From Gammaproteobacteria bacterium (GTDB taxonomy: Bacteria > Pseudomonadota > Gammaproteobacteria > S012-40): 64,000 nucleotides of DNA. Positions within the stretch are counted from its first letter, which is position 1, and each line of letters opens with the position of its first letter. The DNA is taken from NCBI GenBank assembly GCA_029883265.1, contig JAOUJM010000001.1, positions 10,511 to 74,510 of the forward strand, read 5' to 3'. The position numbers were made by a program, and so were the translations under genes. This document shows, piece by piece, positions 12,022 to 33,800 of this stretch. The notes under the pieces were generated by a model. The model searched no databases, was not told the origin of the DNA, and worked only from the letters and a program-made list of their open reading frames with translations.

Positions 12022-12023
12022 CT

Positions 12024-12985: not shown

Positions 12986-12986
12986 T

Positions 12987-13544
12987 TTAACGACCTCCGC
13001 TATTCGTTATCTCGATTAGTCGCTGTTGCCAATAGATTTTTCTGTCAATATCAAAAGCTGATCTATCAACAGGATATGTTGGATGTTGACTTTGAGTTGG
13101 CCCAGATCCCGCGCCATTCATTTCACGCCCTCTATTGGTTTTGTATGGGTGCAATGCCTCACCTCCTTGGCCTGTTTTTGACCGATGCGTTAAATCACTT
13201 AGTTCAAACAGAGGACCGTTCGCATTTTGGCGACTAAGATGCAATTCAATGCGAGACTGTACACCATTCTTCAGAACATAAGGAGCATTTCCCACTTCCA
13301 ATAGCTCCCTATTTGTAGTTGTATAGGTCCTTTTGGTTTTTGGATTGGTAATTTTTACCACTAAATCGGGATCAATTTCTTGTTGAAAGACTTTGTATTT
13401 AATCCCTGTCCCATTTACTGGGGCTACCCACACAGCTTCGGTTTTAAAATAACTAGGATTCTTGGCGTTTTTCGCCCGTAGCGCAACAAAGTCTATCTTA
13501 TTCGGTTCTACTGCTCCCTCAAGTTCATATTTGTTTGGAACTAC
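12987..13544 (-). CDS. Orphan toxin C-terminal domain K (begins VVPNKYELEGAVEPNKIDFVALRAKNAKNPSYFKTEAVWVAPVNG...)
   Basis: Track ORF 12987..13433 extends in frame to the junction at 13544. Confidence 0.55.
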   Translation of the reverse strand, partial: VVPNKYELEGAVEPNKIDFVALRAKNAKNPSYFKTEAVWVAPVNGTGIKYKVFQQEIDPDLVVKITNPKTKRTYTTTNRELLEVGNAPYVLKNGVQSRIELHLSRQNANGPLFELSDLTHRSKTGQGGEALHPYKTNRGREMNGAGSGPTQSQHPTYPVDRSAFDIDRKIYWQQRLIEITNSGGR

Positions 13545-14254: not shown

Positions 14255-14259
14255 GATAA

Positions 14260-14676
14260 TTATTCACCAAACTCTTTAATAATTACTGGAATATTTCGCT
14301 GCTTGCCATACTCAATTAAATGCTTCGCATCATTAAAACCACCTGGCTGAACCCTAATATCCAATATTTTCGTTGCCGGAACGTCGGAAACGGTAATGGT
14401 AGTCTTTTGCAAGTGGTCGATATGAGATCTCATATCATACTCCCAAGATTTACCACCAGTATTAACCGTTTTCAGACTAACAACATTGTTTCCTTGTTGG
14501 AAATCAATCGAAGGGAAGTTATTAGACTTAAATGGTTCGCCAGTTTTTGGGTTAATAGAGTTATCGGAACGAGCCCAATCTTTATAATCTGTTTCTGTAA
14601 GGTGTGACTCAATCTGTCTACCACGAACCTTCGGATCTAGATCCCAAACTTCTCTGCCTAACTTGTTTGGAACAAC
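14260..14676 (-). CDS. Orphan toxin C-terminal domain L (startless, 138 aa; VVPNKLGREVWDLDPKVRGRQIESHLTETDYKDW…MRSHIDHLQK…EFGE)
   Basis: Not in the ORF track because it lacks Met. Hand translation is open from GTT GTT CCA AAC AAG at 14676-14662 to TAA at 14262..14260. The TAA stop of the upstream ORF (14679..14677) is directly adjacent. Confidence 0.55.
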   Translation of the reverse strand, partial: VVPNKLGREVWDLDPKVRGRQIESHLTETDYKDWARSDNSINPKTGEPFKSNNFPSIDFQQGNNVVSLKTVNTGGKSWEYDMRSHIDHLQKTTITVSDVPATKILDIRVQPGGFNDAKHLIEYGKQRNIPVIIKEFGE

Positions 14677-15075
14677 TTATCGCACAGTTACACTCCAAGA
14701 AAAGTCTGGATATCCATCATTTTCTGTGACTCCTAAGACCAGCTTTTTGGCACCTATCACGCACCTAATTTCGCCTAACTCTTCACTTATCTCATTAGGA
14801 TGTAGCAGATCAACGAACTGCCTATAAAATGGCTCGGTATTTTTCGACTTCAAAATTAGAGTTAGCGCGTCTTTTAAACCAGGACTATTACTCTCCACAA
14901 CAGCATTTGGAGTATCAACAGACAGCATAACTGGATTCATGCTTGAAGACAGAACACGTCCTATAAACAACTCACACAAAGATAACGCGCTTTCTGACGC
15001 CTCATTCAATTTGGGCGGAAGAATTATATCGACGGTTTTTTTGTTTTCACCAGTATTCATAGCACCTTCTTCCAA
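14677..15075 (-). CDS. Second small ORF of module M (accessory or immunity protein)
   Basis: 132 aa. It overlaps the 3' end of the zinc-ribbon ORF and ends immediately before the module L junction. Confidence 0.4.
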   Translation of the reverse strand: MEEGAMNTGENKKTVDIILPPKLNEASESALSLCELFIGRVLSSSMNPVMLSVDTPNAVVESNSPGLKDALTLILKSKNTEPFYRQFVDLLHPNEISEELGEIRCVIGAKKLVLGVTENDGYPDFSWSVTVR

Positions 15076-15293
15076 CCCCCTCGAAAAGCTTGGTCAGGAA
15101 ACTCTAATACCCATAATTGTCCACAGTGTTTGCACTTGTATTGAATTTTTATAAATGGCCCTGAATGATCTATTTGTCCGTAACTTTTCAACTCGCCCAT
15201 TTCAACCATCTGGGCAATCCGCTGCCGAAATTCAACGAATTCCTTCTCAGAATTAAACCGTTCTTGGCACAACTCGCAGACTACACAACTCAT
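15057..15293 (-). CDS. Putative immunity protein for toxin M (CxxC…CxxC zinc ribbon)
   Basis: 78 aa with CVVCELC … CKHCGQ. Its start overlaps the toxin M stop. Confidence 0.45.
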   Translation of the reverse strand: MSCVVCELCQERFNSEKEFVEFRQRIAQMVEMGELKSYGQIDHSGPFIKIQYKCKHCGQLWVLEFPDQAFRGGWKKVL

Positions 15294-15793
15294 GGCTTCA
15301 ACCTAAAGATGTGGGTATCCTCTATGGGTACTGGATCAAGCAAGAATTGAGTCCATCCTCCCTGTCCAGCTTCTGGATAGGAATTTGTATAAACCTCCCA
15401 CCCTCGTGTTCCTTCATTTCCAAATGGCCTTGCGACACTAAATCCGCGGACCTTATCTACGGGGATCGCGACACCATAAGTTGGTTCTCCCCACTCAGGC
15501 TTGATTTGAGCACCGCGAGCAATAGCACCACTGGAGTGCGAAAATTCTGTTGTTGAGTAGCCACGAACACTTCCATAACGCAGAGACTTATCAAGACCGT
15601 CTTCAGATAGATATCTAAAAATAAAATCCTGACTTTCTATAGACTCGGAGAGACGGCGTTCGTAGTTCAACTGCGAAAGCTTGTCAATCCTACCTGCACG
15701 CTCTTGCGGGCTTAGGTGACCATACTTTTCTTTCAGTGCTAATGAGCTTGCTCTCGCATCCAGAACAACCTGCGGTGCATTGTCTGGAACAAA
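15290..15793 (-). CDS. Orphan toxin C-terminal domain M (begins FVPDNAPQVVLDARASSLALKEKYGHLSPQE...)
   Basis: Track ORF 15290..15670 extends in frame to TTT GTT CCA GAC at 15793. It is in frame with, and directly after, the TGA stop of immunity N. Confidence 0.55.
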   Translation of the reverse strand, partial: FVPDNAPQVVLDARASSLALKEKYGHLSPQERAGRIDKLSQLNYERRLSESIESQDFIFRYLSEDGLDKSLRYGSVRGYSTTEFSHSSGAIARGAQIKPEWGEPTYGVAIPVDKVRGFSVARPFGNEGTRGWEVYTNSYPEAGQGGWTQFLLDPVPIEDTHIFRLKP

Positions 15794-16264
15794 TCACAAC
15801 AAGCCAAATTTTTCACCCTTACCAATTACTTCAATCGTAACTGAGTAGTCGGACTTTTTTATAGAAACATGTTCTATCAAACCATCAGTTAAATTCTCTA
15901 CACAAAAATCAATTTTTTCCGATTCACTTTTTGGCAAGAAAACCTTATCAGAATACTTTGCCAAATAAGGTAACTTTTTAACTATTGGAATCCTCAATAA
16001 CGGTGTGAGTTCTCTAAATACATCCAGGAATTTGTCGCTATCCAGAGAAGGAGATAAAATTTTCAAAGCTCTTTGAAAACTTCCGATATTTTCGTTTGCC
16101 ACAAAATCATCAAAACTTTTACCGGAAACTATAGCAACCTTTCTAGTGGGTAGGCTTTTACCTTGCCAAATAGTAAGAAACGCTTTAGAAAACTCAATCG
16201 TTCTTAATTTCTCTGGCTCTTCTTTTAAAAAATCTTTTGCCAAATTAATGCTCATATGCGTCAC
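15794..16264 (-). CDS. Putative immunity protein for toxin N
   Basis: 156-aa ORF 3' of toxin N. Confidence 0.5.
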   Translation of the reverse strand: MTHMSINLAKDFLKEEPEKLRTIEFSKAFLTIWQGKSLPTRKVAIVSGKSFDDFVANENIGSFQRALKILSPSLDSDKFLDVFRELTPLLRIPIVKKLPYLAKYSDKVFLPKSESEKIDFCVENLTDGLIEHVSIKKSDYSVTIEVIGKGEKFGLL

Positions 16265-16267
16265 CTT

Positions 16268-16792
16268 CTATTTAAAACCATAGATGGTTTTTATTCTATC
16301 CCATGCATCAAACCGTGTAGCCAGACTACCATTTTCTCCTAATAAAACCCTATTTTCATATATGGTTCCTAGTTCTGGTTTTCCTATGCTGTCTGCAAAC
16401 TTTTGTTCAGCTAGGAATGCTCTCGCCTCAAGATAAGACTTATTAGACATATTTTTCACACCGGAAATATCATCGAAAAAGTGTTGCCCTTCATGTGCAG
16501 TAATTGTAGCAGCTCGTTTTAACCCAGTATTTCCGGTATAAATTAGATCTTGGTTTAACTCAATTTGATTTGTACCAGGAAAATACCGACCATTAAGCCC
16601 ATCTAATTTCGAATAAACAATCTCAACTTTTCCATTTTGAATAGCAGTTGCCAATTTAACTGATCTAGCATCCCCAGTTTCCAATATACGGCTAATCATT
16701 TGAGGAGAAGGCGCTTGATTTCCGTTCGCTAACCTAACTCCATCACCCCCAAACATTACTTTACTTTCTAACTGAAGGTTGTCTGGAACAAC
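16268..16792 (-). CDS. Orphan toxin N with HExxH zinc-metallopeptidase motif (begins VVPDNLQLESKVMFGGDGV...)
   Basis: Track ORF 16268..16756 extends to the junction at 16792. It contains TITAHEGQHFFDD (HExxH). Confidence 0.5.
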   Translation of the reverse strand, partial: VVPDNLQLESKVMFGGDGVRLANGNQAPSPQMISRILETGDARSVKLATAIQNGKVEIVYSKLDGLNGRYFPGTNQIELNQDLIYTGNTGLKRAATITAHEGQHFFDDISGVKNMSNKSYLEARAFLAEQKFADSIGKPELGTIYENRVLLGENGSLATRFDAWDRIKTIYGFK

Positions 16793-16814
16793 CTAATCCC
16801 AAACATCAGTCAAG

Positions 16815-17096
16815 CTAACAAACAGACTCTAGATCCTTGATTAAAACCATAACCTGATCCTGATTACATTCAACAAAGAAACTGTCGATAGTAGAAGTTG
16901 TTTGCAAAGTAATAGATTGCTTAGCTTTAAGCTTTTCTGCTAGTTCTTTTGTTACATCTTCACGATTAGAATTAGTTATATGTACCGAACACACATCCTT
17001 ACCATAAACAACCATAGCTTCGTAGGAATCTTTTAAAGACCACCATTCTCGACGATCTAAAACTCCAGCTGCCTGTTCTCTTATTAAATTAGCCAT
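16815..17096 (-). CDS. Putative immunity protein for toxin O
   Basis: 93-aa ORF. Its start overlaps the toxin O stop (17096). Confidence 0.5.
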   Translation of the reverse strand: MANLIREQAAGVLDRREWWSLKDSYEAMVVYGKDVCSVHITNSNREDVTKELAEKLKAKQSITLQTTSTIDSFFVECNQDQVMVLIKDLESVC

Positions 17097-17563
17097 CAGT
17101 CTACCCTAATATTATCTGTAGAGTTGAATATGCTGCGCTGCCCAGCACTATTCAAGATCAAACTTTGACTTTGTTGCTGCCTAAATATATCCAATACCAT
17201 ACGATCCCCGGGCCAGCCTGATGCATCTAGTTTAATGTCTGTCGTTCCGGGATGAGTATGACCAGACCACTTATAGCCTTTATCAGCCAAACCTTGTAAT
17301 TCAGATTTGGTTAATGGAACACCTCCAGCATTCCCTCTAAACACTAGGCGTTGACTACCATTAGTAAACAAAGCAAACTCATCACCTGTCTTTGCCGTAA
17401 GCGCTGCCAGATCAGTCACGCTTATTTGCTTCTTATGAAGAGTTGTACTTGATAATGTATCTGGTAATTGACCCAAAACCCGTTGTTGACGCTTTGACAA
17501 ATCGCCAAAGCCCCAAGCTATTTCGCTAGGAGAACTAGCTGAAATCGTCTTGTTTGGAACTAC
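17096..17563 (-). CDS. Orphan toxin C-terminal domain O (begins VVPNKTISASSPSEIAWGFGDLSKRQQRVLGQLPDT...)
   Basis: Track ORF 17096..17500 extends in frame to the junction at 17563. The TAG stop of immunity P overlaps the junction (GTAG). Confidence 0.55.
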   Translation of the reverse strand, partial: VVPNKTISASSPSEIAWGFGDLSKRQQRVLGQLPDTLSSTTLHKKQISVTDLAALTAKTGDEFALFTNGSQRLVFRGNAGGVPLTKSELQGLADKGYKWSGHTHPGTTDIKLDASGWPGDRMVLDIFRQQQSQSLILNSAGQRSIFNSTDNIRVD

Positions 17564-17853
17564 ATACTAAATCCGCTTTTCCAATCACTTTTAGTAGTAG
17601 GATCCGACCTCATTTCTTCTAAGAAGAACTCACACGCTGAGCTTTCATCCTCAAAACACTCTTTGCCAGTCTGCAATCCTCTCTCACTATAATAAACACA
17701 CCACCGGCCATTTTCACAACGCAAGCACAACGCCTCGTCCTTTTGTTCCTCCTCCAATGAGTAAGAGCTAGGATTAAATTTCTCCTCACTCAACTTTCTT
17801 TGAAGATCATCTTTATTCATGCAATATCCCTCATCATTTTGTAACGCGCTCAA
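17560..17853 (-). CDS. Putative immunity protein for toxin P
   Basis: 97-aa Cys-rich ORF that overlaps the toxin P 3' end. Confidence 0.45.
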   Translation of the reverse strand: MSALQNDEGYCMNKDDLQRKLSEEKFNPSSYSLEEEQKDEALCLRCENGRWCVYYSERGLQTGKECFEDESSACEFFLEEMRSDPTTKSDWKSGFSM

Positions 17854-18732
17854 GATATTGGTTTGCTGGATTCAAGAGCTCCTTTACTGATTTTGGCAAC
17901 TCGTATTGGGTACCATATCCAGGCATATCAAAAGCAGGTGCAGCTGGGCCAATGCGTGTATCCGGAATTTCTTGGAGAACGCGATACACATTCAAGTTAC
18001 TCACATCTGTGCCGGGACGAAGGGATAATGTTTCTGGAGTTGTTCCTAAGGGGCTTGCGAATGTACCGCGTTCATTCCCGAGACGGCCTATTAGCTGTCC
18101 AGGTTGCAATGAGCCAATCTCATCAGCACCATAAACAAAACCTTTATTCTTCGGCCAATCCCAGAACACATTTTCTGCACCATACTTGCTGGTCAAATAT
18201 TCATTCCATTGAGCGCCTGAAACTGCTCCAGTCTTGTTTGGAACACGATCACCGCCTTTATATTTTAATATACCGCCAGCAATAAAACCATATGTTAAAC
18301 CACCCAATAGCTCTGGATTCTCCCTGTTCTGCCACAAGTTCCTCAGACTTTGGACCTTTCTATCTGAAAATTCGGTACTAGTAGGAAAACCCAGCTTATC
18401 TAACTTAAAGAAACTATTAAAATTTAAAGAGAGGTCATTAAACTCTTCCCAGATATTTTTTCCTATATCTAGCAAAACCTCTAAAGTCTCATTTGTCAAT
18501 CTGTCACCAAGATCTTTATGAGCATTTAGGGTTCCTTTACTGAATCTCAATGCGTAATCACCCACATCTCCGTTTTGTTTCTGCTGGTTACTCCGGCCCA
18601 AAACAACCCCATTAATCTGATCAAGTTGCTGCATTGCCTCTTCTAAATTTTGTTGACTCTCAGAAACCTCTCCAACCCCCTCCTCCTTACTATGTCCCGC
18701 CAACGTCAATGGTAAATCCACTTCCTGGCCAT
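17834..18732 (-). CDS. Module P: displaced original C-terminus of the giant rhs gene (EVDLPLTLAGHSKEEG…KYKGGDR-VPNKT-GAVSGAQWNEY…LERVTK)
   Basis: Track ORF 17834..18817. The first 28 codons are IS66-encoded (18817-18733). Immediately outside the IS left end the frame continues from the TSD (HGQ) into rhs-like sequence. That sequence joins seamlessly to …TYNGYGQ of the giant ORF once the IS66 element and one TSD copy are removed. Confidence 0.65.
18725..18732 (+). repeat. 8-bp target-site duplication CTGGCCAT (left copy) of IS66 element 2
   Basis: Identical octamer at 22840-22847, directly outside the other end. IS66-family elements make 8-bp TSDs. Confidence 0.85.
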
Positions 18733-18755
18733 GTAAGCGTCCTAAACTCCGCACC
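18733..18755 (+). repeat. IS66 left terminal inverted repeat (copy 2)
   Basis: GTAAGCGTCCTAAACTCCGCACC. The canonical IS66-family end starts GTAAGCG. Confidence 0.75.
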
Positions 18756-18816
18756 TTCCCAGTCAGTTTAAGATCCGTTAGCCTGCTGCTGTGTAAATTA
18801 CCAACAGGAGCAGGCA

Positions 18817-19173
18817 ATGAACGATCTCACTCAACCGTCCATCAAAAACATTCGCACGGATAAACGCAGCAAAGGCCCTGAGTATTGGCAGGCGCATATG
18901 GATGCGTTAAAGCAAAGTGGTATGACTAAAACCGGTTATTGCATGCATCACGGACTTTCTACGGCGACGTTTTTTAAGTGGGAGAAGAAACTGGCCAAGG
19001 CCTCGGCTTTGTTTGTTCCGGCTAAGTTGGAGACAGTGCCGGTGTATCCAGCCTCATCCAATGATCTGATTCGCATTGATCTGCCCAATGGTTGTGTGAT
19101 TTCCTTGCCAGTGTCGTGTTCACCTACTGAGGGTTTACGTTGGATCGAGACCTTGATGCGTGCTTCATGCTGA
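18817..19173 (+). CDS. tnpA: IS66-family TnpA (orf1)
   Basis: 118 aa. Paralogue of 6931..7290. Confidence 0.7.
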   Translation: MNDLTQPSIKNIRTDKRSKGPEYWQAHMDALKQSGMTKTGYCMHHGLSTATFFKWEKKLAKASALFVPAKLETVPVYPASSNDLIRIDLPNGCVISLPVSCSPTEGLRWIETLMRASC

Positions 19174-19523
19174 AGCTAGATCGTGAGATTCAGATTTACT
19201 TTGCGATTAATCCGATCAATATGTTAAAAAGCTTTGATGGGTTATCCGCTTTAGTGGTGGATGTGATCGAACAAAACCCCCTATCGGGGCATTTGTTTGT
19301 GTTTCGTAATCGAGCCACTGATAAGATTAAATTGCTGATCTGGGATCGCAATGGTTTTACCATTTATTACAAAAGACTCGAACGTGGTCGCTTTAAGTTT
19401 CCTGAGCTAGATGACTGCACCCACTTGTCTATCACCCGCCAAGAGTTGGATTTGTTATTTGACGGGATTGATTTTACTAAGCTCAAACGATTACCCGCAC
19501 TGCATTACACATCCGTGACTTGA
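19140..19523 (+). CDS. tnpB: IS66-family TnpB (orf2); true start probably the internal MLKLDREIQIY at ~19167
   Basis: Same motifs as 7278..7634. Confidence 0.8.
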   Translation: MDRDLDACFMLKLDREIQIYFAINPINMLKSFDGLSALVVDVIEQNPLSGHLFVFRNRATDKIKLLIWDRNGFTIYYKRLERGRFKFPELDDCTHLSITRQELDLLFDGIDFTKLKRLPALHYTSVT

Positions 19524-19553
19524 TTCTGGATTAACCTGCATTACAATAGCGCC

Positions 19554-21044
19554 ATGCAGGCAAAGTCTCAAACACGCTATTCTTATTCTGAACTCGAAGC
19601 ACTTGTGGTTGAACTTCAAAAAGAAGTGAACCTGCTTCGAGAGAAAAACCGGTTGTTGTTGCATCGACAGTTTGCTGCTAAATCCGAACAGATGACGGAC
19701 GATCAGTTGTCTTTATTTAATGATGATTCGGTAACAGCAGAATCAACTCCTACAAAAATGAAGAACGATAACATCGTCGTACTCGCCTATCATCGCAAAA
19801 AACGGCAACGACTGACGTTTTCTGATGACCTACCTAAACGTAGAGTTGAGATTGATCTGGATGAACACGACAAGACCTGTGATTGTTGCAATACTCAACT
19901 CACGCAAATCGGTGAAGACATTACTCGAAAGATTGAATTTATCCCAGCGAAAGTCCAAGTCGTCGAATACGCTCGATTAAAATATGCGTGTAAATCCTGT
20001 GAAGACACCATTAAACGCCCACCCTTACCGAACTTTATCTTACCAAAAAGTTTCGCCACACCAAGTTTACTCGCGCATTTGATTGTGAGTAAGTTTGGTG
20101 ATGGCTTACCGTTGTATCGCATTCAACAACAACTAGCGCGACAAGGCGTGCATTTACCGCGTTCGACTATGAGCACCTTATTACTCAAAGCAGCTGATTT
20201 GCTCGTACCAATTTATAAATTAATGATCAAGCAAGTATTGTCCGGCCCGCGTATTTGGACGGATGACACGATTCTACCCAAACAAAATGATGATCCAAAT
20301 CGAAAGAAGATTATTCAATCTCGATTATGGGTATATATCGGAGGTCCACTCAAAGATCCACCCTTGGTGATTTTCGATTACACCAGCAATCGATCTTCGA
20401 AATGGCCGAAGGACTTATTAGCCCATTACCAAGGTTATAAGCATGCTGACGGGTATGGTGGATATAAATCGTTGCATGTAACCGGTAGCATTCACTATGT
20501 GGCTTGCTGGAGTCACGCACGGCGAAAGTTTTTTGAGGCTTCACAACTGACCGAACAAAGCGGTAAAGCCAAGACCATGATCAAATACATCAAACAGCTT
20601 TATCGGATTGAAACGGCTTGTGAGAAGTATGGCAACAAAAAACGTAAACGGTTTCGACGAAGATATGCCACACCCATACTCAACACCATTAAAGCCTATG
20701 CCGAGCAACATGCGCCGCTTATTCCACCCAAAACCAGTTTGGGTAAAGCGTTTACCTATTTACTCAATCAATGGCATGGCTTAGTTCGTTATCTCGATGC
20801 CGGTCACCTAACCATCGACAATAACCTGGCAGAACAACACATCCGACCCATCGCCGTTGGAAGAAAAAGTTTTTTGTTTGTCGGCTCCGATCGCGGCGGT
20901 CGTGCGGCTGCGATTTATTATTCGCTGTTGGCGTCGTGTAACAGTTTGGGGGTGAATCCTTATGCGTATTTGGTGGCGGTGTTTGAGCGTTTGCCGGAGT
21001 GTCTAAGTGACCAGGATTTTCAGAAGCTGATGCTTAAACAATAA
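19554..21044 (+). CDS. tnpC: IS66-family transposase TnpC (orf3)
   Basis: 496 aa. Coiled-coil N-terminus, zinc-finger region and DDE core. About 88% identical to copy 1 but diverges at the extreme C-terminus. Confidence 0.85.
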   Translation: MQAKSQTRYSYSELEALVVELQKEVNLLREKNRLLLHRQFAAKSEQMTDDQLSLFNDDSVTAESTPTKMKNDNIVVLAYHRKKRQRLTFSDDLPKRRVEIDLDEHDKTCDCCNTQLTQIGEDITRKIEFIPAKVQVVEYARLKYACKSCEDTIKRPPLPNFILPKSFATPSLLAHLIVSKFGDGLPLYRIQQQLARQGVHLPRSTMSTLLLKAADLLVPIYKLMIKQVLSGPRIWTDDTILPKQNDDPNRKKIIQSRLWVYIGGPLKDPPLVIFDYTSNRSSKWPKDLLAHYQGYKHADGYGGYKSLHVTGSIHYVACWSHARRKFFEASQLTEQSGKAKTMIKYIKQLYRIETACEKYGNKKRKRFRRRYATPILNTIKAYAEQHAPLIPPKTSLGKAFTYLLNQWHGLVRYLDAGHLTIDNNLAEQHIRPIAVGRKSFLFVGSDRGGRAAAIYYSLLASCNSLGVNPYAYLVAVFERLPECLSDQDFQKLMLKQ

Positions 21045-21094
21045 GTGAAAATGTAAACCATTATTGTTCACCTATTACCACACGGCCAAACATC

Positions 21095-21823
21095 TCATTT
21101 ACGAGGTTCAGGTATCTCCACACCTCGCTGCTTTAACGCGGCTAAGAGTTTTTCATACCAAATCTGTTGACTGTCGGGAACATTTACCATTACAGCAATT
21201 TGTGCCAATCTCTCTAATTCTACAGTAGTGCCCTTTTCTAAATAAAAAAGCCCTTTATCATAACGTCCCCAGACGGCAACAACGTGATCGGCTATAGTTC
21301 CGCCTTGGTTGTCAACACCATTTAAATCGGCACCATTATCCAGTAAAAAATCAATGCGTTTCCAATTGCGTCCATTAGCTATGCGTTGTAATAATGGCAT
21401 ACCATTCCAGCAAGTGATGTTGGGGTCACCGCCATGGCGTAACAATATTTTTAGATAGTCGATGTCGTCGGCTTGTGCAGCAAGTTCCATAGCTGAAAAT
21501 TCAATATCGGTTTTGTAATTCGGATTCGCACCTAGCTGTAATAGTTTTTCCAAACCTTTTTTGGCTTTCGCAGCAATCAGCCACATTAAGGGTGAGAGGC
21601 CTTCGGATCCGACCGCATTCACATTGGCACCTGCTTTTACTAATCGATCGACTTCGGCAAAATCCTCGTCAATGGCGGCATAGATCAATTGTGAATCCAA
21701 CGGCTTTGAAAACGATTGTTTCGCGGTTAAGCCACCCAGTTTTAATTCACCACAGGCGCTACACATGAAACTCATGCCGAATAAAAGAAATAAGTATTTT
21801 CGGAGTTTTATATTTTGAATCAT
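21095..21823 (-). CDS. Ankyrin-repeat lipoprotein, the cognate immunity protein for the lipase-like toxin domain (IS66 cargo)
   Basis: 242 aa with a signal/lipobox-like N-terminus (LFGMSFMCSACG). It has at least four ankyrin repeats (GANVNAVGSEGLSPLMWL…, GANPNYK…, GGDPNIT…, GADLNGV…). An RBS AAGGTGA precedes the ATG. It lies immediately 3' of the toxin domain. Confidence 0.7.
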   Translation of the reverse strand: MIQNIKLRKYLFLLFGMSFMCSACGELKLGGLTAKQSFSKPLDSQLIYAAIDEDFAEVDRLVKAGANVNAVGSEGLSPLMWLIAAKAKKGLEKLLQLGANPNYKTDIEFSAMELAAQADDIDYLKILLRHGGDPNITCWNGMPLLQRIANGRNWKRIDFLLDNGADLNGVDNQGGTIADHVVAVWGRYDKGLFYLEKGTTVELERLAQIAVMVNVPDSQQIWYEKLLAALKQRGVEIPEPRK

Positions 21824-21846
21824 GCTTCACCTTAATTGCAGATCAA

Positions 21847-24800
21847 TTATTTAAACGCGTTGATAAAATATTGCATATCGTGCAAATCCACAGGGTCCAA
21901 ATAACTTTGCCATGGCAAGGGCTGTTTCGCTTCATTTACGGCCGGTACGGCAATACGAGTGCCTGCGGCTTCTGGCATTTGTCCGGGGCCAAAACGATGC
22001 CAGCCAATGTCCCTACCATAAGATACATCATTAAGTGCCATAACAGCCGCGAGTAAATTTTTTGGGACTGTACCCCATTGGTTGAGGACGGAGTCCACCA
22101 CTGGACTAGCCTGGAGTGTGCTCAATATTTCACCCGGCGTATAGAATGCGTAAACATTTTTCTTTAAGTGATTCCGATCCATTCCATAGCGCTCAATTGT
22201 ACCATCACTGAGTCCTGCCGCGTTAAAGGTAACCGCACTGGATTTCAACCTGCCAGCTTGTGCCGAAGCAATGCCGCCACCGAGGGAGTGACCGGTAAAG
22301 GTTAGTGGTGATGAGCCTAACGCTATTTGAAGATCAATTGCAAGATTGATCCCAAATTCATATTGGGTCGAATTGAAATCGGATCCTTGAGCAATACTTG
22401 CTACTGCATCTTTAACCGCTTCATGCCGGCCCAATTTCGTATCCGTTCCTCGATTGGCGAATATAAATTCGCTTGTGCGATAATTAAAATAGAGTGCGCC
22501 TTGGTAGCCACTCTTCTTATCTACAAAATTTTCAGGTTTCATATCCAGGACATCAATAAAATCCCTACCCATGCGGTAAATATCCTCAGTGACTTTCTTT
22601 GGTTCCTTTCCGGTGTATTCTTGATAAACATCGTCAGATACCATAGCGTTTTCATACCAATCAAGGCTTCCACTAAAGTCCAGTCTGATTGGAGCGGCAC
22701 TAGCAAGCTGCGAGTTATATAGCGTTCCGTTTTCATCAACTAGCTGTCCGTTCTTGAATGTGAGTATCGGTTTGGTTTCAACGGCATCGGATGATTGTCT
22801 ATAAGGAATTTTGCCTGGGGCAGAGTTTTGGACGCTTACCTGGCCATACCCATTATACGTTTTACCGCCATTACGAATAAGATTGCGACCTGGCTGGATT
22901 CCCCCAAATAGCGGCAACTCACCCAAAGCAGATTTCCAAGCATCCTCACCAGACACGCCTTTGCGAATAGACTTGGTGTAGTGTTTCTTAATCGCCTGTC
23001 TTTGTCGGTGGTCGTTTATTTTCAACTCATCAAGTTTGTTATCAAACTTTTTGGTCGACTGCTCAGCACTAATATATCCCGACGCAGCACTACTTAGTGC
23101 CTCAACAGCAACCGTCCGCCAGTCCGGCCGGTAGTCTTTCAGAGTCATGGAGTTAACGGCTATGCGGCCAACTCCAGTTAACGCACCACGTATCGCATCG
23201 CCTGCAACACCCGCGAAACCCCATCCATCAACTTTCCCAACGTTGCTTGGTAATGAAGATGTGACTCCACCCACTAATGCGCCAACCGCTACATTCGCGA
23301 ACAGATTTCCTGCTTGGCTATTGTATTTTTTACGCTGCTCAGTTGACTCCATGGCCATCGATAAGCCAGTCGATATAAGTGCTCGTCCCGCACCTTGTAG
23401 TGCACCCTTAACAACCCCTCCTCCTGTCTGATTCAATCCAGGTATTTGTGATATGATCGCGGCGATTGTCATTGATTTAACAATTTCTTCCTCGTCAATT
23501 TCATCGATGTAACCAACATTCTTCATGTATTTCTGTATGGCATACGAGGTCATTCCGGCAGCAATAATCGCCCCTTGCGGACCAAACACTATAAAAGCAG
23601 CAATAGATATGACAACAGAAGCAACATTCATCCAAAATATTTCAGACTTCGAGGGTTGATTCCTTGCAGGCATGCTTGGGTCCGTACTTCCAATTATCTC
23701 TCCCGGACTATAAGGTTTGAAGGTATCGGCATTGTTATGAATGTTTGTGACAACATTCGGAATGATTATGGATATTCCAGGTGTTAAATCAATATTGGTG
23801 ATATTGTTTGCGTTTGCAATCACATACCAAAGACTAGCATCTCCCCATACTTTACCTGCAATCGTTTCCAAAGTGTCACCTTGCACAACGAGGTATTCAC
23901 TGGCTGTATTCGCAGGATAGTTAGCACTAATGGCTTGATAATTTTGATCAAAGTCTGCTGAAATAACTCGATTCTTCCCTCTTTTTTCGTTATCTGCAAT
24001 CTCCTTGTTTGATAGTCGCGACTGGGCAAGTATTTGTGTATAGTCGGTTTCACCGGCACCTCGGTTGGATACTTCACCAATACCCCGTCCATTAAGATAG
24101 AAATAGCGGTTTACATCGTAATTTGTATTATCGATTTCATTACGCATAATGATTCGGCCGTCGGCATCAACCGTAAACTCAACTCGGCGCTCATATTTGG
24201 TGCCATGTAGTGGTGAGTTGGAATCATCCATTCTCATCAAGTGTCCATTTTGGTCATAATAAAGGTGAGAATACCCGTCAACAAAACCACGTGAATTTAC
24301 ATCCGACCTACCAACACTCTTTTTTGCAGAATCCCAATAGCTATAGAAATAGGAATTCCTGAAATTCTTTTGTTCCTCAATGCTCTTTACTTGATATGAG
24401 ACATTCTTTTCAGCTAGATCTAAACGATCTATTTCACGATAGGTGTAATCGTTATGAATTGTTGACTGCTCTTGCAAATATAGAAATTGATCCTCAGAAT
24501 TTTCCACTCTTTTACGATACTCAATACGAGAGATACGACTATCCAGATCATAGCTATAGTCGTATTGTTGTACAGACTGGGGTGGAATTGTGGTAACAAC
24601 AGTTTCTATATCTGGGTCATATAAATGAGAGGAGCTCGTTCGACCTAGCGCATCTAGCAAGCGCCGAGACACTAAATTTTTGTCTTCAACATTATCGACT
24701 ATTTTTCCGTGTTCAACAGTTTCTAAAATACCATTTTTTGTATATCCATATCGTTCGATCATAGTCGTATTCGCGCGAATATAGTTAACGCCAATTCGCT

Positions 24801-27800
24801 CACCTGCAAGATTATACAGGACTTCATATCCTTTATTTTCTGCAATTTCGACATTGCCAGACCCACCGACATCGAGTCTACCTTGTGTAATTCTAAATCG
24901 GTTCATTGAGTCGTAGTCATACCAATGTTCCTGGACGAAATCTCCAGTCGCTTCTCTATAGTCTGCTCCTCGATGAGCGTTAAGATCAATACCACCGTGG
25001 TACTTGGATACCACATGAATGCGATTTCCCATTTCGTCGTAATCATATGTAATATTGAAAAACGGATCGTTAATCTCGACAACACGATTGTAGTCATCAT
25101 ATATCGCTATCGTATATTGATAATCTTTTCCAATATCGGCATTTGCTCCCTCTTCGTAAACCGCTTCATAGGTTTTGTTACCATTGTTGTCGTAGCCATA
25201 CCGACTAACCAATCTAACACCATCATTTCCACCGTTAAAACCATAATCTACTTTTGCCTTTAATGACCCGTTATCATTGTAGTCAAACTCAATCACTTGA
25301 TCATAATCAGAATGATTAGTCATAAAATTGTTCAGACTATAGCGATATAAATCCATGTAGTCATAAGTAAAACCATGTAGCTGTGTATCAATATTATTCC
25401 ATGCGGCATCAGTTGCAATAATTGAAGCACCCGGATCCGTATTACCGATTTGATAGCGCAACTGCCCCCTTGCATCATAAAAATAGCGATAGCTACGGTT
25501 TCCGAGATCACGGTGGTAAACGAGCTTATTGAAATAGTCATATTGGTCTGTGATGGCTCGTGTTTCATAGTGCGGAATAATAATTTGAAGTCCAGCTTTC
25601 AAATCCGCATCAGTAATGTTATTTGCTTGACCTATCGAATTTGACATGTCTTCAACATTTAGTAAGCTATAGGCTATGGACGCCAAGGTATCGCCAGTTT
25701 GGACAATATAATTTAATTTTTCCCGACGTCCATAAAGGTAGACGGTTAATGTGTTTCCGACCACCAGTGTTTCGTCAACGACACCATTATCACTTCCAAT
25801 CCGGTTCGCTACCTCAGAGACTCTCAACAACTGTCTTGCAATAGATTCTAGCGTGTCACCGGACCTGACAATATACAAATTGCCAGAATAGGTTGTTTTG
25901 CTGAACCCCCCTTCCTGACCATTAAAGGTGAGATAGTTATAATCGTAACGAGTAACTTTATCACCATAGCTGACATGTTTTACCACCCGTCCTAATGCAT
26001 CGAAATAAGTCCGCTCTCGTCCACCGCCTTGGTCATGGAGAATTTCGTCATGGGAATTTGTATCCGGGTCAGTTAGATCGAGTGATGTATCAACTAAATT
26101 GATATGTGCAATTCGGTTACCATTTTCATCATATTCGTACTTTTCAACATTGTCGTATATATTGCTAGTTTCTTCAGTAATACCACCAAAAGAGCCTAAT
26201 ACATATTTTATAACATTATGTTTTTCTTTAGTAACATAGGTAATTTGGTTATTGTGATCAAACTGATATTTTGTCACGCGATCTGAGTCAGCTGTTAGCT
26301 TCTGACGTTTTTCAATTACATTACCAAAGCCGTCATAGACATAGGTCATTCCGCCCCCATCAGGGTTGAACTCCTGCTTGAGGCCATTTTGGTCATAAGA
26401 GAATCTTTTTAAATTGTTGCGTGCATCTGTAATTCCAGTGACATTACCCAGCTTGTCATAGTAATAAATCGCATTGGCATCCTGAATAGTTTGAAGCCGA
26501 CTGTAATAACTATTTCGAATTGGATCTTTTCGCGGATTACTTTTTCTAATTAGATTACCCATCTTGTCATATTCAAAGTAGGTATAGATATCTTTGCCAT
26601 CTTTTTCTTGGACAATTTCTCCAAAAGCGTTGTAGTAGTGAGATTTGTGAATTTGTACAAACTGGTCTGGATCGCTGTTATCACTAGAATTCACGCGACG
26701 ATGTGAGTAAAGTGACGCCTCACCTGTTAAATCGATGGACAATTGTCCCTGCAATACTTTGGCATTGGGATCATTTGGTTTATAGGTATAATTAATAACA
26801 TAGTCACCGGAATAGCTTCTTGGAACTGAATATCTTTGTCTCGTGCTGTCCGTTATAGTACGGAAAATTATTTCTTTGTATGTTTCACCGCCAGATTGTC
26901 TAATTGTTGCTGACAGTGTTCCTTGTGCTGGATCAACGTTTTCAAGATATACATCCCTGATATAATACCAAGATAAGCTAGAATCCATAAATGGAAATGA
27001 AGTAACGCGAGCCTCAATCGAATTATCACCATCATCCGAGCTAAAAGCGTTGCCATCTAAGCGCAAATGACTGCCTGGTTCTACTGATGGGTTATTAGAT
27101 AAATTCAGAATTACTTTCCCTGTATGAGGCGTTAAATCTGGGTTTGTTGCTTCATTGTCATAATGATATTCATATTTCAACTCAAACTGTCCTTCGAGTC
27201 CAGCATCGCCAAAATTCCAGGTTTGCCAGGAAGGATTAAAACCACTCGGTGTATCAAAATGTTCAACAGTAACCCACTCAGTTTCACCCACCCGTCTAAT
27301 CTCTACCGTTAGGGTGCCCAGAGACTTTGGTACATTCTTTAATATAATATCTCGACCATAGTACTGGTCGACAGCAACGTAATTATTCTGGCCGTCCACG
27401 TCACGAAAGCTTCCTGATACCGACGCAATGGTATAGCCATTCTTCTTGATTGTGGCACTATATGTCCTGGAACCAATATCATGTCCTTTCGGCGTACGAT
27501 AATGCGCGTCCTTACCGCCACTCCCATATGTGATAATTTTTTCTTCTTCATTATTCGGATTAAACTCTAGCACCAGACTACCTTCACCGTAGGAATTCTT
27601 GATTGAATCCACATTCGGATCTACGGCATCCCACCAAGTCTCCGCCCAGTCTTTACCTACAGCGTCATGAACACGTAGATGTAAACCACCATAGGGGGTA
27701 ACTTCAATATCAACTTTTCTATCACTTAATGTCTGGTATAGAGTTTGTGAAATCGACTGAGTGTGCGATGGTTCGTAAATATGAACAAGTTCGTTTCTTT

Positions 27801-30800
27801 CATTGTAAACGCTTGAACGATAAACAGAAGGAGCATTGTTATCAGTGATTGATGGCAGGATCTCTTTTGTCGCATTTCCGTTACGATCATAAGCATATTC
27901 CTTGACCACACCATCGCTGTTAGTTTTAATCAGGTTGCCGTTGCTGTCATATTCAAAAAACACTTGCCTGGCTTTGTTAGCTTCTGGACGTGATAGTTGA
28001 AGTGTATTTCTTTCGTATGCGCCCTGAAACGCTGCTTTTTCATAGCCATTGTATTCAGTGTATTTGTTCTCAAAGTAAGCATAGACAGAAGAATTTTTCT
28101 CTGTCCTTTTTCCACTGACTATGTTCCTATTTAGTCTATCATAAATGTATTCCGCGATATCTGTAAAAAGGTTTCCATCTGCATCATGTCTATTTAGGCT
28201 TTGGGTTCTAACATTACCAACAGCGTCGTAAGTATACTTGTTATTGGCACCATATTCTTCACTAACATTGGCATTGAAGTTTGCATCCCAATCCTCCAAC
28301 AACCTCCCATCAACTCCGTATGAGAATTTTTGTATTTGATCAAGGTTCGCAAGAGAGGGAGCACCATTAAGAGGAATATTTCTAGACTCACTGTCTTTCT
28401 CAGATGCAATATTTCGCGCCTCGATCACATTCCCATGTGCATCATATATATTTTTTGTAGATTTAAGACCTGATTTTTTTGTTAAGAGGCGACCTAAAAC
28501 ATCGAAACTATAATTTGTAGTATTTGACTCCGCGTCTACTATAGTGGTTATATTTCCCATTACGTCATAGACATATGCAGTAACACTATCTTCAAGCACT
28601 CCAGATTGCATGTTACCGTTACTAAAAGAGTATGTTTGAAAATTTTCCAAAGAATCCGTTTTCAGCCTATTTAATTTGTCGAATGAATAATTTTTAATTC
28701 TCGAATCAGAATATTGATTATCTCTTAAATCAACACTTTCTATCACAAAATTGTAACCACCATTCGTTGCAACGTTCACATTAGACAAATTAATCGAACC
28801 GCTTTTTATTACTCGATCGTTATCTTGCAGAATATATGATACCGTTGCTCTTCCACTAATGTTACCGACATCAAAAAATGCTTCGCCATTTTCATTCACC
28901 ATAACATCTACTGGTGTAGCAGTCGTTTCACCTTCTCGCAGCAGGCTCGCGCTCCAGACTCCACCAACATAATCAACGTCACTAATCTTCAAACGATTGA
29001 CATCAAATGCTGAGTATCCGGAATGCCAGCCTTGTGATCCAAGCATAAGATTCGTATCCACTCTTGCAATTTCAAAAGAGTCTGAATTGCTTATAAGTGT
29101 GATAACAAACTCTTTGATTTCACCAGTATTATATGAACGAAGAGGTATTGTCCCTTTGGTAAGGATTGTCGTAGTAGGAAAAGTTGTGTGATAAGTGCCA
29201 TCCGCTCTCGCAGCTCGAATAACGTAATAGTCGCCTTGTTTTAAGGTGGGAAGATTTATTTTTACGTACATCACAGAAGGCATCCCATCGCCTACCTGCC
29301 AAAAGTAAGGATAAAAGTAACCTTCCTCCAAATTGACTTGAACGATTCGATCCTCGTAACCGTTTGTTTCAAACTTCTCAAGCACTTCTAATAAAGAAGT
29401 ATTTTCATCCACCACATCTCTTAAACGTATCGAAGCCTTCTCTTCTCTAATCGCATTATTGAATGCATCGTAATTCCACTGGGTTGCATATCTTAGTGCA
29501 TCAACTGTGACTCTTTTATTACCTTTTTTATCATAATAATGAAAAATAGAATTTTCGTTTCCATCTACTTCTCTTACTAAGCGGCCTTTATGGTCATAGT
29601 ATTTCCGAATCACCGTTTCGCTGACATAATTTTCTTCCTTAATAAATTGATCATCACCAGGATCACCAATGGGCACCATTCTATCTTTTTCATAACGATG
29701 CTCTGCCGGAAGTTTTGTCTCCACAATTTGATTAAATGCATCATAACGATGTGTTAGTTGCATGTAGACATTTGAGACTGTAAATTTGTAAATCGAGTCT
29801 GCGAAGGTTGCAGTATCACGATATTTTCGCTCTTCAATAATATTACTCACAGAATCATAGGCAAACGTTTTCAAGAACCCTTCCGCATCGTGGGTGGCTA
29901 TCCGTCGTCCTAAATTATCATAATAATGCTGAGTTATGTTTAGATTTGCATCAATTTCACGGACCAAATTGCCAACAACATTGTATTTTTGTTCGATTGT
30001 GGTCGTTATACCCACGCTATCACCGGCACTCAATTTTATTCTATGGTTTTCCGTTTTAACCAGTAAGTTTAATTTGTTATAGGTATAGCTTCGACTTCGC
30101 TCTTCCTCCATGCCCGCTGCTTCTCGTGAAATGCGCCGGTTTCCGAATGCATCGTAACTGAACTCATTTGTTTGTCTTTCAAAACCTGTAGTTTCAAAAT
30201 CGATAAAAGGCAGCAAGAATCGCCCATCCATGCCTACCTCAATGGATTCACGATCGCTGATTCCACCTTTGTTAGCAATCGGCAAATACTCACTCGTCAA
30301 ATTTCCTTTGCGATCATAATTGTAGTGGTATTGATAACCAAGCGAGCGTTGGTAGTCTGGGTCTAGAACATTTGTTATAGGTTGATGACCTAGTAATTTT
30401 CCAATCTGATTTCCAAACGCATCATAATCATATTTTTCTTTTACCGATTCTGCATTGGTTAATTCAGTTTTGCGGTTCAGTTGATCGTAGTTCAGTAAGG
30501 TCTTTTGATCTTTATCAGTATTAATCTCCAAAAAGGTTTCGAGAATCTGACTTTCCGTGGTGTTGTCATCAACAGTATGAGCGGCCGCAATTGCGGTTGC
30601 ATATTGCATCGTACCCGTTAGATTACCCATTCCATCATAGGCTTTGGTTGTCACATAACGCTCAGGATCAACCACCAAAGTATTGCGATCAAGCTTATCG
30701 TAGTAAAAATAACTTATTGTGTCATAGGGTTCAGTAATTTTAGTAATATTACCAAACGCATCATAATCGGTTTTCTTCAATTCAAAAATATTGACGGTGC

Positions 30801-33800
30801 TACCAGCGCCTTCCTTAATCACTGATGCCGTCTTACGATTTAGCTGATCAAATGTCTGATACGTTGAATAGTAGTTTAGTAATGTATCTTTTTGATCCTG
30901 TGTTAACTGGATATAACTTAAGTTTGTAGTTGCCGTTAAACCGAGAATTAATTTACGTTCATTATCAGCCCAATCAGAATCAGTTTCTGTAAGCTCAATA
31001 CCGCGTGGATCAATAATCTTTGTCTGATTACCAAACGCGTCATAACCGAACTCACTTGAATAGGCCATTTGAGTTTGTGGATGTGCGGTATCAAGATTAG
31101 CTACAACACTGGCAGCCTCGAGATAAACTGTACGGCGTGTTAACAGACCACGCTGACTAAATTCTTGCGTGGTGCGTTGCAATTCATCACCACTGATATT
31201 GAGTCGCTTAACAATCGACGTTGTATTACCAAATGCATCGTAGCCATACTCCGTTACCAAGTCTCCATTCTCATCAGTTGAATGCGTCGTATACGACACA
31301 TTCTCAAGTATCTCTTGATATAATCGCCCGGCATCATCGTATACATAACGGGTACTGCGATCACCACTTGTTGTATCACTATTTCTATACAATAGGTTCG
31401 TACCACTAACTAGTAGTTGAATATCTCCCTCATTTCGAACATCAAATCGTTGTGTTGCCAAGGTGGCGACACCACTTTCTGGAAAACCTTCCGCTGTTGT
31501 ATCGTTAACAACCTGTAGTTGGTTAGCGTATTGAGTTACCCGAGATAGAAGATCACCTGTATATTCTCGTCCAGTGACATAACCCTCTGCATCGACACTG
31601 AAACTCACTCTACCTGCAGCGTCGTACTGTTGAAAACTAACACGGTCTTTACCACTCGTCGCCGTAACAAGTGGCGTTGTTTCAGTGACATCCACCACTT
31701 GTCTGTTCAGAGTATTAATACGCGTTTCTAAGTAGGTGTTCCACTCAGCGGCTGTAGGAGTAGAGTCTTGATAGGAATTAATAGTGAGTGCCTGATAGAA
31801 ACGCGAAGCAACAATTGCCTGTCCCAATGCATCGTAGCTTGTCTGATTAACATACCCCAAGGCGTCTATCGAGTAAATCTTGCGTCCGGCATTATCATAA
31901 AAATAATGATTAATCTGATCAGTAGACGAATTACCCGCTAGGTTTCCTCGAATAGTCGCCTCTTTATAATCCGCAAATGTAGTTTCTTTTGAGGCATAAC
32001 GCATGCTAAGAATAACTTGGCCACTAGCGTCATAACGTTTTTCATTGACGTAGCCCATGGCATCCACGCTATAACGCAAACGGTTTAGCTTGTCGTAAGC
32101 AAAGTGATCGCCCTGATCATTTGCAATAACATCGGGACGTTTCTGGAGAATTGTTTGCGCGAGTAATTCAGTGTTAGTGCTATTTATCGTAGCAAGATCG
32201 GTGGTAGATACTGAATTAGCCAGCCTAGATTGACGAATCACATTACCATTGTCGTCATACTCGTACACAGTATAGTTGCCCACTGCATTTACCGTTACAG
32301 TCAGGCGACCATCGTCATCAAAAACTGAATAATCAACGATATCTTTTGCAAGGTCCGCTGATGCCGAGACTAAACTCAGAATGTCGGCTTCCGTTGAATG
32401 ATCATCAAGAGTAGTTGTGGATATGGGCAAGGCATACTGAATTGTCTTAACCTTGTCCCCTCTGTCGTTATACACCGACTCAACCACTACTGCTAGCTGA
32501 CCTGTTGGAATAGGATCCAATTCCATGTATTCAAAATCAAGAACGTCAGCATTCTTGATGGAATAACGTAACCGATTAACATCATCATAAACATATCTCA
32601 TGGAGTGTGAGGTATCTTCCGCGCTCAAATCGGTAGCGAAAGCAACTTCTGAGGTTTCACTAAATGCACCAAGGGCCGGGGTAAATGGTAGAACTGTAGC
32701 AACACTTAACTCTAAACCATTACGCAATAGAACTAACTCATATGTAAAGCCGGATCGACCTCGCCTGTAACGCCCAAAATCAGAGTCAGCTGGAGAATCA
32801 TAAACCGTAGTTCCATTCTCTTTTAACAGAATCCGGTCGGTTGCTAAAGAAGTTACATTTGACCACATCACATAGTAACTTGAGGTTAGCGTTTGATCAT
32901 CAAAAGCATAATTCAATGTTAACGAGCCACTCAATCCGCTAACATCTACTCGTCTGTAACCCTCCACCTTACGCACCATATTATCCGCAGCATCATAATA
33001 ATATTTAGTAGTAATATTTAACCCACCCGGATCAACAATCGTATCTGTGCGTCGACCTAAGTGATCGTAAATGTATTGTGTTTCCCTGGCTTGTGTACTA
33101 TTGGCGCCTTCGGTAACCGTTAATTGACGACCTTCTGCATCATACGTATATTCGGTCCGCAGATTTAAACCACCATTGACGGCATCAACAACGACGGCTA
33201 ATACATTACCCGCACGATCATATTCGGTATCCGTATGTACACCGTTGGCATCAATGGTTGTAACTTTGCGACCCAGACCATCAAAGACATACTGGGTTTG
33301 AATATTCAGTCCAGTCTCATTGTCACCCGTAGTGTGAATCGTCATGGGATCAACGGTACGGGTCATCACCCGATTGGCGGCATCATATTCAAACTTGGAA
33401 TAGACACCATTTTTATCCACGGTGTGGGTTAATCTTCCCGCCTTGTCATACTCACTAGTTATTGTGTTATTGAGCATGTCAACCACTTTAACCAGCTTGC
33501 CATTGGTATCATAATGATACTCTGTACCATCATTTGAATTTGCTGCCGACTGATTGCCGTCAATGATTTTAATCGTTTGACCATTGCGATCCGTAATGGT
33601 CTGTGTCTGAATCAATTCAGGCGTCGTCACCGTCAAGGTATGCGTCGCATCATCATACGCATAAGTGGTTACATTCAAAAATGCATCGGTCATGGTCAAC
33701 ACTCGACCAAAGGCATCATAAGTTTGTGAACGTGATACGTCTAATGCATTCCTTGTTTGTACCTGTCGCCCCAGACGATCATATCCAAACTGAGTGATGT

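Follow-up and report, generated by a model that had tools for sequence, protein, structure and literature searches.

The Tle6 lipases form a group defined by Jensen et al., with a catalytic triad composed of Ser341, Glu393 and His448 (PMC11470151). Activation of Tle from Enterobacter cloacae depends on its immunity protein and proceeds via a methylglyoxal crosslink between Arg180 and Lys461, which connects the N- and C-terminal helices (PMC11470151). The published family includes Rhs and CdiA fusions (bioRxiv 10.1101/2023.03.28.534661), and an ankyrin lipoprotein immunity protein, Tli, reportedly accompanies Tle6 domains in every case (PMC11470151; bioRxiv 10.1101/2023.03.28.534661). Separately, insertion elements of the IS66 family are bounded by inverted repeats of 20–30 bp that start with GTAAGCG, and they duplicate 8 bp of their target (PMC11946415, PMC12888890); those with passenger genes downstream of the transposase are termed tIS66 (PMC12888890). 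Here, we describe a locus in which these two systems meet, located within 64,000 nucleotides of contig JAOUJM010000001.1 from an uncultured gammaproteobacterium (this whole stretch is hereafter called the window). It is highly probable that a Tle6 lipase domain and its ankyrin immunity protein are present as passengers of an IS66 element, tIS66-B, and that they have been fused in frame to a giant YD-repeat/LysM protein. The features on which this reading rests are listed below.

18733..22839: tIS66-B, a complete IS66-family element of 4107 bp, defined by its inverted repeats, target duplication and IS66 Pfam domains
18733..18755, plus strand: left inverted repeat, GTAAGCGTCCTAAACTCCGCACC, matching the right repeat at 20/23 positions
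22817..22839, minus strand: right inverted repeat, GTAAGCGTCCAAAACTCTGCCCC, which starts as IS66 repeats do
18725..18732 and 22840..22847: left and right copies of the 8-bp target-site duplication CTGGCCAT, a perfect direct repeat
18817..19173, plus strand: IS66 tnpA, an open reading frame (ORF)
19140..19523, plus strand: IS66 tnpB, an ORF
19554..21044, plus strand: IS66 tnpC, an ORF for the DDE transposase
21847..41001, minus strand: giant YD-repeat/LysM protein of 6384 aa, from the ORF and its translation
22840..41001, minus strand: constant part of the giant protein, joined in frame to the transposon-borne lipase domain
21847..22839, minus strand: predicted Tle6-like α/β-hydrolase (phospholipase) toxin domain of 330 aa, from homology, an AlphaFold2 (AF2) model and conservation
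21095..21823, minus strand: predicted Tli6-like ankyrin-repeat immunity protein of 242 aa, from Pfam, its model and its signal peptide

The pair resembles Tle–Tli of E. cloacae (PDB 7UBZ/9CYS) and Slp of Serratia marcescens in several respects. A lipase fold with a GHSLGG elbow and a Ser/Glu/His triad is followed immediately downstream by an immunity gene, whose product is a six-repeat ankyrin protein with a lipoprotein-type signal peptide containing in-frame Met codons. Yet, the lipase domain is only ~20–25% identical to Tle, the region matching its N-terminal helix α1 differs, and the pair lies inside a transposon. The carrier is a 6384-aa YD-repeat/LysM protein instead of a type VI secretion system (T6SS) adaptor, VgrG or PAAR protein. 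Fungal class-3 lipases and feruloyl esterase A (Rhizomucor, Thermomyces, Aspergillus FaeA), which are the next best relatives after Tle, share the fold and the elbow, but they are only 11–15% identical; moreover, the acid here is Glu rather than Asp, the stabilizing disulfides are missing, and the context is that of a toxin. The Tle6 toxin family, its ankyrin immunity proteins and IS66 elements with passengers are already described. In the literature searched, no IS66 element or other transposon combining a repeat-encoded in-frame linker with a start-less polymorphic-toxin/immunity cargo was found.

The organization of tIS66-B is that of known tIS66 elements, for example ISPa75 with fosZ. It contains intact tnpA, tnpB and tnpC (encoding the DDE transposase) in that order, terminal repeats starting GTAAGCGTCC, an 8-bp duplication, and passengers between tnpC and the right repeat. 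On the identical genes of an independent assembly (L083), Pfam identifies the TnpB_IS66, LZ_Tnp_IS66, zf-IS66, DDE_Tnp_IS66 and DDE_Tnp_IS66_C domains. No inverted repeat occurs between tnpC and the ankyrin gene, and the sole right-end repeat is at 22839, past the lipase; therefore, the ankyrin gene and the lipase domain are inside element B. When the element and one copy of CTGGCCAT are removed in silico, an uninterrupted ORF of 6350 aa is obtained, which contains ...KTYNGYGQ-EVDLPLTLAGHS... and has a TNT (tuberculosis-necrotizing-toxin-type) domain at its end. Both genes arrived through IS66 transposition into the 3′ region of the giant gene. An initial annotation of the stretch, made from its sequence alone, had ended the toxin segment at 22839; this boundary is real, but it marks the terminus of the IS66 inverted repeat, and the transposon cargo context was missing from that annotation.

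A repeat of ~30 nt covering 22808..22839 is present in four copies starting GTAAGCGTCC, two on the plus strand (at 6847 and 18733) and two on the minus strand (at 10500 and 22839), and each plus/minus pair of termini brackets one IS66 tnpA-tnpB-tnpC set. This repeat was also considered as a VENN-like recombination junction shared with orphan cassettes, a candidate that was rejected because two of its four copies are inverted and bracket IS66 genes. A promoter and terminator scan of element B gave no excess over shuffled controls, and the cargo could not be distinguished from its flanks by G+C content.

The passenger is what distinguishes tIS66-B from described tIS66 elements, as it is a toxin/immunity pair whose toxin ORF lacks a start codon and continues across the right repeat. 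This repeat is open in only one frame, the toxin frame, and encodes VSVQNSAP, i.e., residues 1–8 of the lipase domain. Within the lipase module, no in-frame start-type codon occurs before residue 66, which is already inside the folded domain. The module could therefore be produced only as a fusion, and its expression would depend on in-frame joining to a host gene. The initial annotation regarded the lipase as the currently expressed toxin; such expression is presumed from the in-frame fusion only. In the translation of 21847..41001, the C-terminal sequence of the giant protein is ...SSPLTFTGHSLGGGIASAQAGRL..., and its last residues contain ...LTFTGHSLGGGIASAQAG....

The lipase end carries TFTGHSLGGG, confirming the earlier assignment of a GHSLGG elbow to a C-terminal lipase-like domain. 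The codons of the elbow and of the putative catalytic residues were checked.

22279..22293, minus strand: nucleophile elbow G-H-S-L-G
22285..22287, minus strand: codon of Ser6239
22129..22131, minus strand: codon of Glu6291
21880..21882, minus strand: codon of His6374

In the hidden Markov model (HMM) alignment, Ser6239, Glu6291 and His6374 align with Ser341, Glu393 and His448 of Tle. Among 66 homologues, the Ser is conserved in all 66, Glu or Asp in 65, and the His in 65; all nine invariant columns of this alignment are intact in the lipase, as are the catalytic residues. The profile built from these homologues has its best PDB match in the “T6SS lipase effector” of E. cloacae (7UBZ_B/9CYS, E = 6e-55, profile positions 59–321), followed by fungal class-3 lipases at ~1e-6. 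Even the single domain sequence matches 7UBZ_B in phmmer (E = 5e-11). The AF2 model has a mean predicted local distance difference test (pLDDT) value of 78, exceeding 90 in the core, and a Foldseek search with it ranked 9CYS first in the PDB, followed by feruloyl esterase A and fungal class-3 lipases. PF26363 (“Phospholipase-like”) is recorded for the 6384-aa protein and annotated in all 95 homologues from a database search, some of which also carry Lipase_3 or Mbeg1-like (PF11187, formerly DUF2974) annotations. Direct Pfam and NCBIfam scans of the domain gave matches to Lipase_3, Thioesterase and SA1320, all below threshold. At the level of sequence, the domain is a clan-level relative of Lipase_3 and Mbeg1-like rather than a member, although several homologues do pass. 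Its homology to E. cloacae Tle places it in the Tle6 family, whose lipase homologues sit on PAAR, VgrG, Rhs and stand-alone scaffolds. The domain had been described initially as of the Lipase_3/Tle type. The PF26363 record and the structure matches bear out a lipase-family identity and the Tle relationship, and the elbow Ser falls within a conserved triad; the relative, however, is Tle6 and not Tle1–5 or DUF2974 proper.

The ankyrin gene begins 23 nt past the stop codon of the toxin and is preceded by an AAGGTG Shine–Dalgarno sequence. Its product scores above the cut-offs for Pfam Ank_2, Ank, Ank_4, Ank_3 and Ank_5. The AF2 model (pLDDT 91.7) shows six helix-pair repeats, so that the “at least four” repeats counted initially were an understatement. 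Among full-length structural matches, Tli (9cys_I, 7ubz_A) ranks first, with template-modeling scores of 0.64/0.67 over 231 columns and 24–25% sequence identity; DARPins gave slightly better E-values, but over ~155 columns. The N-terminus contains the following features.

21755..21823, minus strand: predicted signal peptide, residues 1–23
21752..21754, minus strand: Cys24, likely lipidated

Its sequence, MIQNIKLRK-YLFLLFGMSFM-CSAC/G, begins with a basic n-region, continues with a hydrophobic core of 11 residues and ends in C-S-A-C24-G, and Cys24 is aligned with the Cys of a canonical L-x-[GA]-C lipobox in 13 of 16 homologues. From these features, the ankyrin protein can safely be predicted to be exported, and it is probably a lipoprotein. 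In-frame codons for Met17 and Met20 (21764..21775, minus strand) lie within the signal peptide, with no Shine–Dalgarno sequence evident ahead of either. They are reminiscent of Met10/16/24 of E. cloacae Tli, alternative starts that give a cytosolic, activating form. In a survey of 80 reference-genome loci encoding a relative of the lipase, an ankyrin ORF adjoins the lipase at 62, always on the same strand and never on the opposite one, and tandem ankyrin arrays of up to six copies are found at some of them. This pairing agrees with the published rule and with the initial view of ankyrin proteins as a known class of immunity proteins for lipase effectors.

The following course of events is proposed. 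Element B inserted into the 3′ region of the giant gene, duplicating 8 bp, and its right inverted repeat, open in the toxin frame, joined the start-less lipase ORF to the scaffold; the previous TNT toxin thereby became the first downstream orphan. The giant protein now ends in a Tle6-type serine lipase with an intact triad, and the ankyrin gene, 23 nt downstream, could be co-transcribed. By analogy with E. cloacae Tle, the lipase may hydrolyze membrane phospholipids of neighboring Gram-negative cells from the periplasmic side. The exported ankyrin protein would shield the producer by sequestering the lid helix of the lipase, as deduced from Tli, and a cytosolic form, started at Met17 or Met20, possibly helps the lipase to mature in the manner of the alternative Tli starts. 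From this analogy we infer enzymatic activity, periplasmic action and neutralization by the ankyrin protein; export of the giant fusion protein is likewise presumed, and the in-frame fusion would represent either an evolved strategy or a selected accident.

The insertion took place beside a native cassette array, in which a sister element is also located.

17834..18732, minus strand: displaced former 3′ end of the giant gene, comprising 162 aa of pre-toxin sequence, the junction RVPNK and the TNT domain, from the restored ORF and Pfam
1095..17563, minus strand: array of at least 15 orphan toxin/immunity cassettes, from the 14-nt junction motif
6847..10500: tIS66-A, the sister element, with the same inverted repeats as element B and other cargo

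The Rhs, CdiA and MafB orphan arrays have the same arrangement, a large scaffold gene followed by promoter-less toxin/immunity modules with a short conserved junction. Here, the junction is (V)VPNK in place of the VENN or DPxGL of those loci, and the displaced former toxin is the first orphan. In contrast to those arrays, the current toxin was installed by transposition and not by junction recombination, the junction homology is only ~14 nt, the cassettes begin directly past the preceding stop codon, and there is no Rhs autoproteolysis motif. Each orphan cassette starts at this point with the 14-nt motif KTWGTTCCARACAR, corresponding to (V/F)VP(N/D)K, of which there are 15 matches, none of them on the plus strand, compared with a chance expectation of 0.56. 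With so short a homology, the cassettes may be exchanged by site-specific or short-homology recombination. The displaced TNT ORF harbors a sixteenth copy that differs at two positions (GGDR-VPNK-TGAV, 18234..18247); therefore, before the insertion, the giant gene ended with the pre-toxin region, VPNK and TNT. The TNT domain, of the NAD-glycohydrolase type, is recognized by Pfam with E = 2.3e-20, and LHH nuclease and NTP_transf_2 domains occur among the orphan cassettes. The adjacent cassettes at 957..1105 and 1550..1699 open almost identically (VVPDKTLNHQASSGVILQTEPGKTT and VVPNKTLNHQASSGVILQTEQGKTT), a sign that a cassette was duplicated locally.

Element A shares 86.7% identity with element B in the last 33 bp and in the first ~2.26 kb, a part that extends from the left repeat through tnpA, tnpB and the greater portion of tnpC. 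A common left part of ~2.26 kb with differing cargo is a further likeness to related tIS66 elements. Element A has as its cargo toxin an ORF of 251 aa that lacks a start and is open across the right repeat (VSVQNSAPRK...AQESSLKY...GLFQMEP), with an E-S...GLFQM motif that hints at a lytic transglycosylase; its other cargo product is a signal-peptide protein of 184 aa. As the cargo ORFs of both elements are start-less and open through the repeat, the cargo toxins would be made only as fusions. Element A has its repeats and no target duplication. Its right repeat is in frame and exactly within the VVP/NK cassette junction (...LFVVP/VSVQ), and its left flank (6041..6846) is another displaced 3′ end of a giant-gene allele, reading ...VDFALTLAGSS...KVDG-FVPDN-toxin, to be compared with EVDLPLTLAGHS of the TNT allele. 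These arrangements suggest repeated insertion of such elements into the giant gene, followed by rearrangement. Look-ups of the tnpB and the cargo toxin of element A returned only the same context as in the window.

Other assemblies inform on the mobility of element B. The element with both flanks whole is found in L083 with 99.98% identity, four assemblies carry the fused allele in identical or almost identical form, and the Logan contig L084 starts exactly at the terminus of the right repeat. JGI contig Ga0224506_10003679 (L085) carries the right repeat plus the initial 76 nt of the lipase module, at 100% identity, directly next to an array of clustered regularly interspaced short palindromic repeats (CRISPR). 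Therefore, the element has moved and occupies at least two genomic contexts. The CRISPR array (1..420 of L085) has a 28-nt repeat, GTTATCCGCTGAGTACGCGGTTTAGAAA, and 32-nt spacers, and the right end of the lipase-carrying IS66 element interrupts one of these spacers; large ORFs lie downstream on the contig. An exact-pattern scan for the right inverted repeat found one locus (L085) among metagenome contigs and none among viral contigs. The search for sibling giant proteins sharing the pre-toxin region gave generic LysM matches only, and the uninterrupted giant::TNT allele was not recovered in it.

A more general proposal, to which we would give somewhat less than an even chance, is that IS66 elements of this type are dedicated toxin-swapping transposons. 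The repeat would serve as the linker VSVQNSAP and the cargo would be a start-less toxin and an immunity gene, so that a single transposition would install both weapon and antidote and turn the old toxin into an orphan. Several observations weigh against the proposed reading of the locus or its generality. The direct scan of the lipase domain with Lipase_3 (PF01764), the family named in the initial annotation, gave 17.3 bits against a cut-off of 22 and covered the elbow only, while PF26363 and the Tle profile did match. The Arg180–Lys461 pair of E. cloacae Tle is not recognizably conserved in this lipase: the Tle Lys, 13 residues past the catalytic His, is not conserved among the 66 homologues, Lys6384 here is C-terminal and only 10 residues past His6374, and Arg52 of the domain lies ahead of the first helix. 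The lipobox claimed at the outset, to which the alignment of Cys24 with homologous lipobox Cys residues lends support, is non-canonical, with Cys instead of Leu/Val at position −3, and is disallowed by the strict pattern. As element B inserted upstream of the native VPNK junction, the fusion lacks the intervening 162 codons, a pre-toxin stretch possibly needed for delivery. The second insertion site is a CRISPR spacer; therefore, insertion is not limited to toxin genes. Finally, neither an IS66 transposase nor a GTAAGCG terminus occurs in the 80 reference-genome Tle6-like loci, so that generality beyond this lineage is without support.

Part of this evidence would fit an insertion that was simply an accident breaking the toxin gene, with a fortuitous fusion, a chimera that is undelivered or inactive, and TNT as the functional toxin. 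We consider this explanation unlikely, although it is the strongest of the alternatives. It draws on the lack of a common motif at the insertion sites, one of them being the CRISPR spacer, on the one in three insertions that would be in frame by chance, on the loss of the 162 aa of pre-toxin sequence upstream of VPNK, and on the absence of IS66 from every other Tle6 locus surveyed. It accounts poorly for the construction of the elements, as the toxin ORFs of both abut the right repeat and read its only open frame with no start codon. The left-repeat flanks of both are displaced 3′ ends of giant genes, and the right repeat of element A is in frame at a cassette junction. Furthermore, neither the catalytic nor the invariant residues of the lipase have decayed, and the fused allele persists (nearly) unchanged in four assemblies.

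The passenger pair might instead be aimed at eukaryotic hosts, the lipase being a phospholipase of host membranes and the ankyrin protein a secreted effector or chaperone comparable to the Ank proteins of Legionella and Coxiella. Phospholipase effectors are able to act on eukaryotic membranes, and the ankyrin protein has weak NCBIfam similarity to Dot/Icm Ank effectors, far below the cut-offs. Against this stand the Sec/lipoprotein-type signal peptide, kept among homologues, and Tli, an immunity protein, as the best full-length structural match. The synteny with the lipase at 62/80 loci and the tandem copies, up to six, are typical of immunity genes, and the surroundings, with their TNT and LHH-nuclease cassettes, are those of a classical polymorphic-toxin array. 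A eukaryotic target is accordingly very improbable. Still less credible, and already contradicted, is an exchange of the toxin by homologous recombination between cassettes with the IS66 copies as unrelated bystanders downstream of the immunity gene: the locus does have a native cassette system with a common 14-nt junction motif, and transposases are frequent near polymorphic toxin loci (bioRxiv 10.1101/2025.10.01.679605), but the only right end lies at 22839 and not between tnpC and the ankyrin gene, the 8-bp duplication brackets the whole 4107-bp unit, whose removal restores the ORF, the VPNK motif is missing from the lipase module, and L085 has the same lipase end next to unrelated DNA.

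The giant protein that carries the lipase has a DUF6531 domain near its N-terminus, dozens of YD/RHS repeats (RHS_repeat/YD_repeat matches) and three LysM domains. The repeats and a partial RHS_core similarity are confined to its first two thirds. Neither PAAR nor VgrG, nor a signal peptide or an Rhs-core C-terminal cleavage motif, was detected in it, and no Rhs core-end motif (DPxGL aspartyl autoprotease) lies ahead of the toxin, so that it falls outside the canonical definition of an Rhs protein. The toxin is preceded by a LysM domain, a hydrophobic Gly-rich segment and a linker. In this pre-toxin region (22848..23700, residues ~5770–6054), after the last LysM, a strongly hydrophobic stretch (~5786–5818) and several Gly/Ala-rich amphipathic segments are found, and the homologue P0007 has a similar Gly-rich region ahead of its lipase. 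The region may be a membrane-insertion or translocation module. No PAAR, VgrG, DUF4150 or T6SS gene occurs in the window; this absence weakens the “T6SS effector” label and leaves the Tle6 homology intact.

Directly upstream of the giant gene and in the same orientation, a flagellar-type gene cluster occupies 48804..64000 on the minus strand. It comprises FlgF/G/A/H/I/B/C, FliE/F, a short FliG-like gene, FliH/I/J, FlgD/E, FliM/N-like genes, FliO/P and a FliA-like sigma factor, and is followed by two tetratricopeptide repeat (TPR) proteins (47101..48763). The window shows no secretion system besides this cluster. A direct repeat of 300 bp (41065..41364 and 46980..47279, 99% identity) takes in the 3′ end of the TPR gene that encodes 362 aa, together with the region downstream of it. 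The 5.9-kb segment between the two copies contains three genes, whose products are a DUF6973 protein (424 aa), a putative lipoprotein (310 aa) and a signal-peptide protein (491 aa); in its absence, the giant gene would come straight after the TPR gene.

Collectively, these observations extend the Tle6/Tli6 family to an uncultured gammaproteobacterium and to a giant YD-repeat carrier that is not of the T6SS type, and the pair provides a natural case for testing whether activation that depends on the immunity protein is a general property of Tle6. The transposon context is of greater importance than the toxin/immunity pair itself. Homologous recombination at conserved junctions is the usual explanation for how polymorphic toxins diversify; this locus records a precise and reconstructable event, in which an autonomous IS66 element delivers a start-less toxin domain and its immunity gene in frame. 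If IS66 elements of this type are indeed toxin-swapping transposons, orphan arrays would be built without homologous recombination. If the in-frame fusion is an evolved strategy, it would constitute a new route for the horizontal spread of interbacterial weapons and a new role for an inverted repeat as a coding linker, and it would explain the frequent occurrence of transposases in toxin loci.

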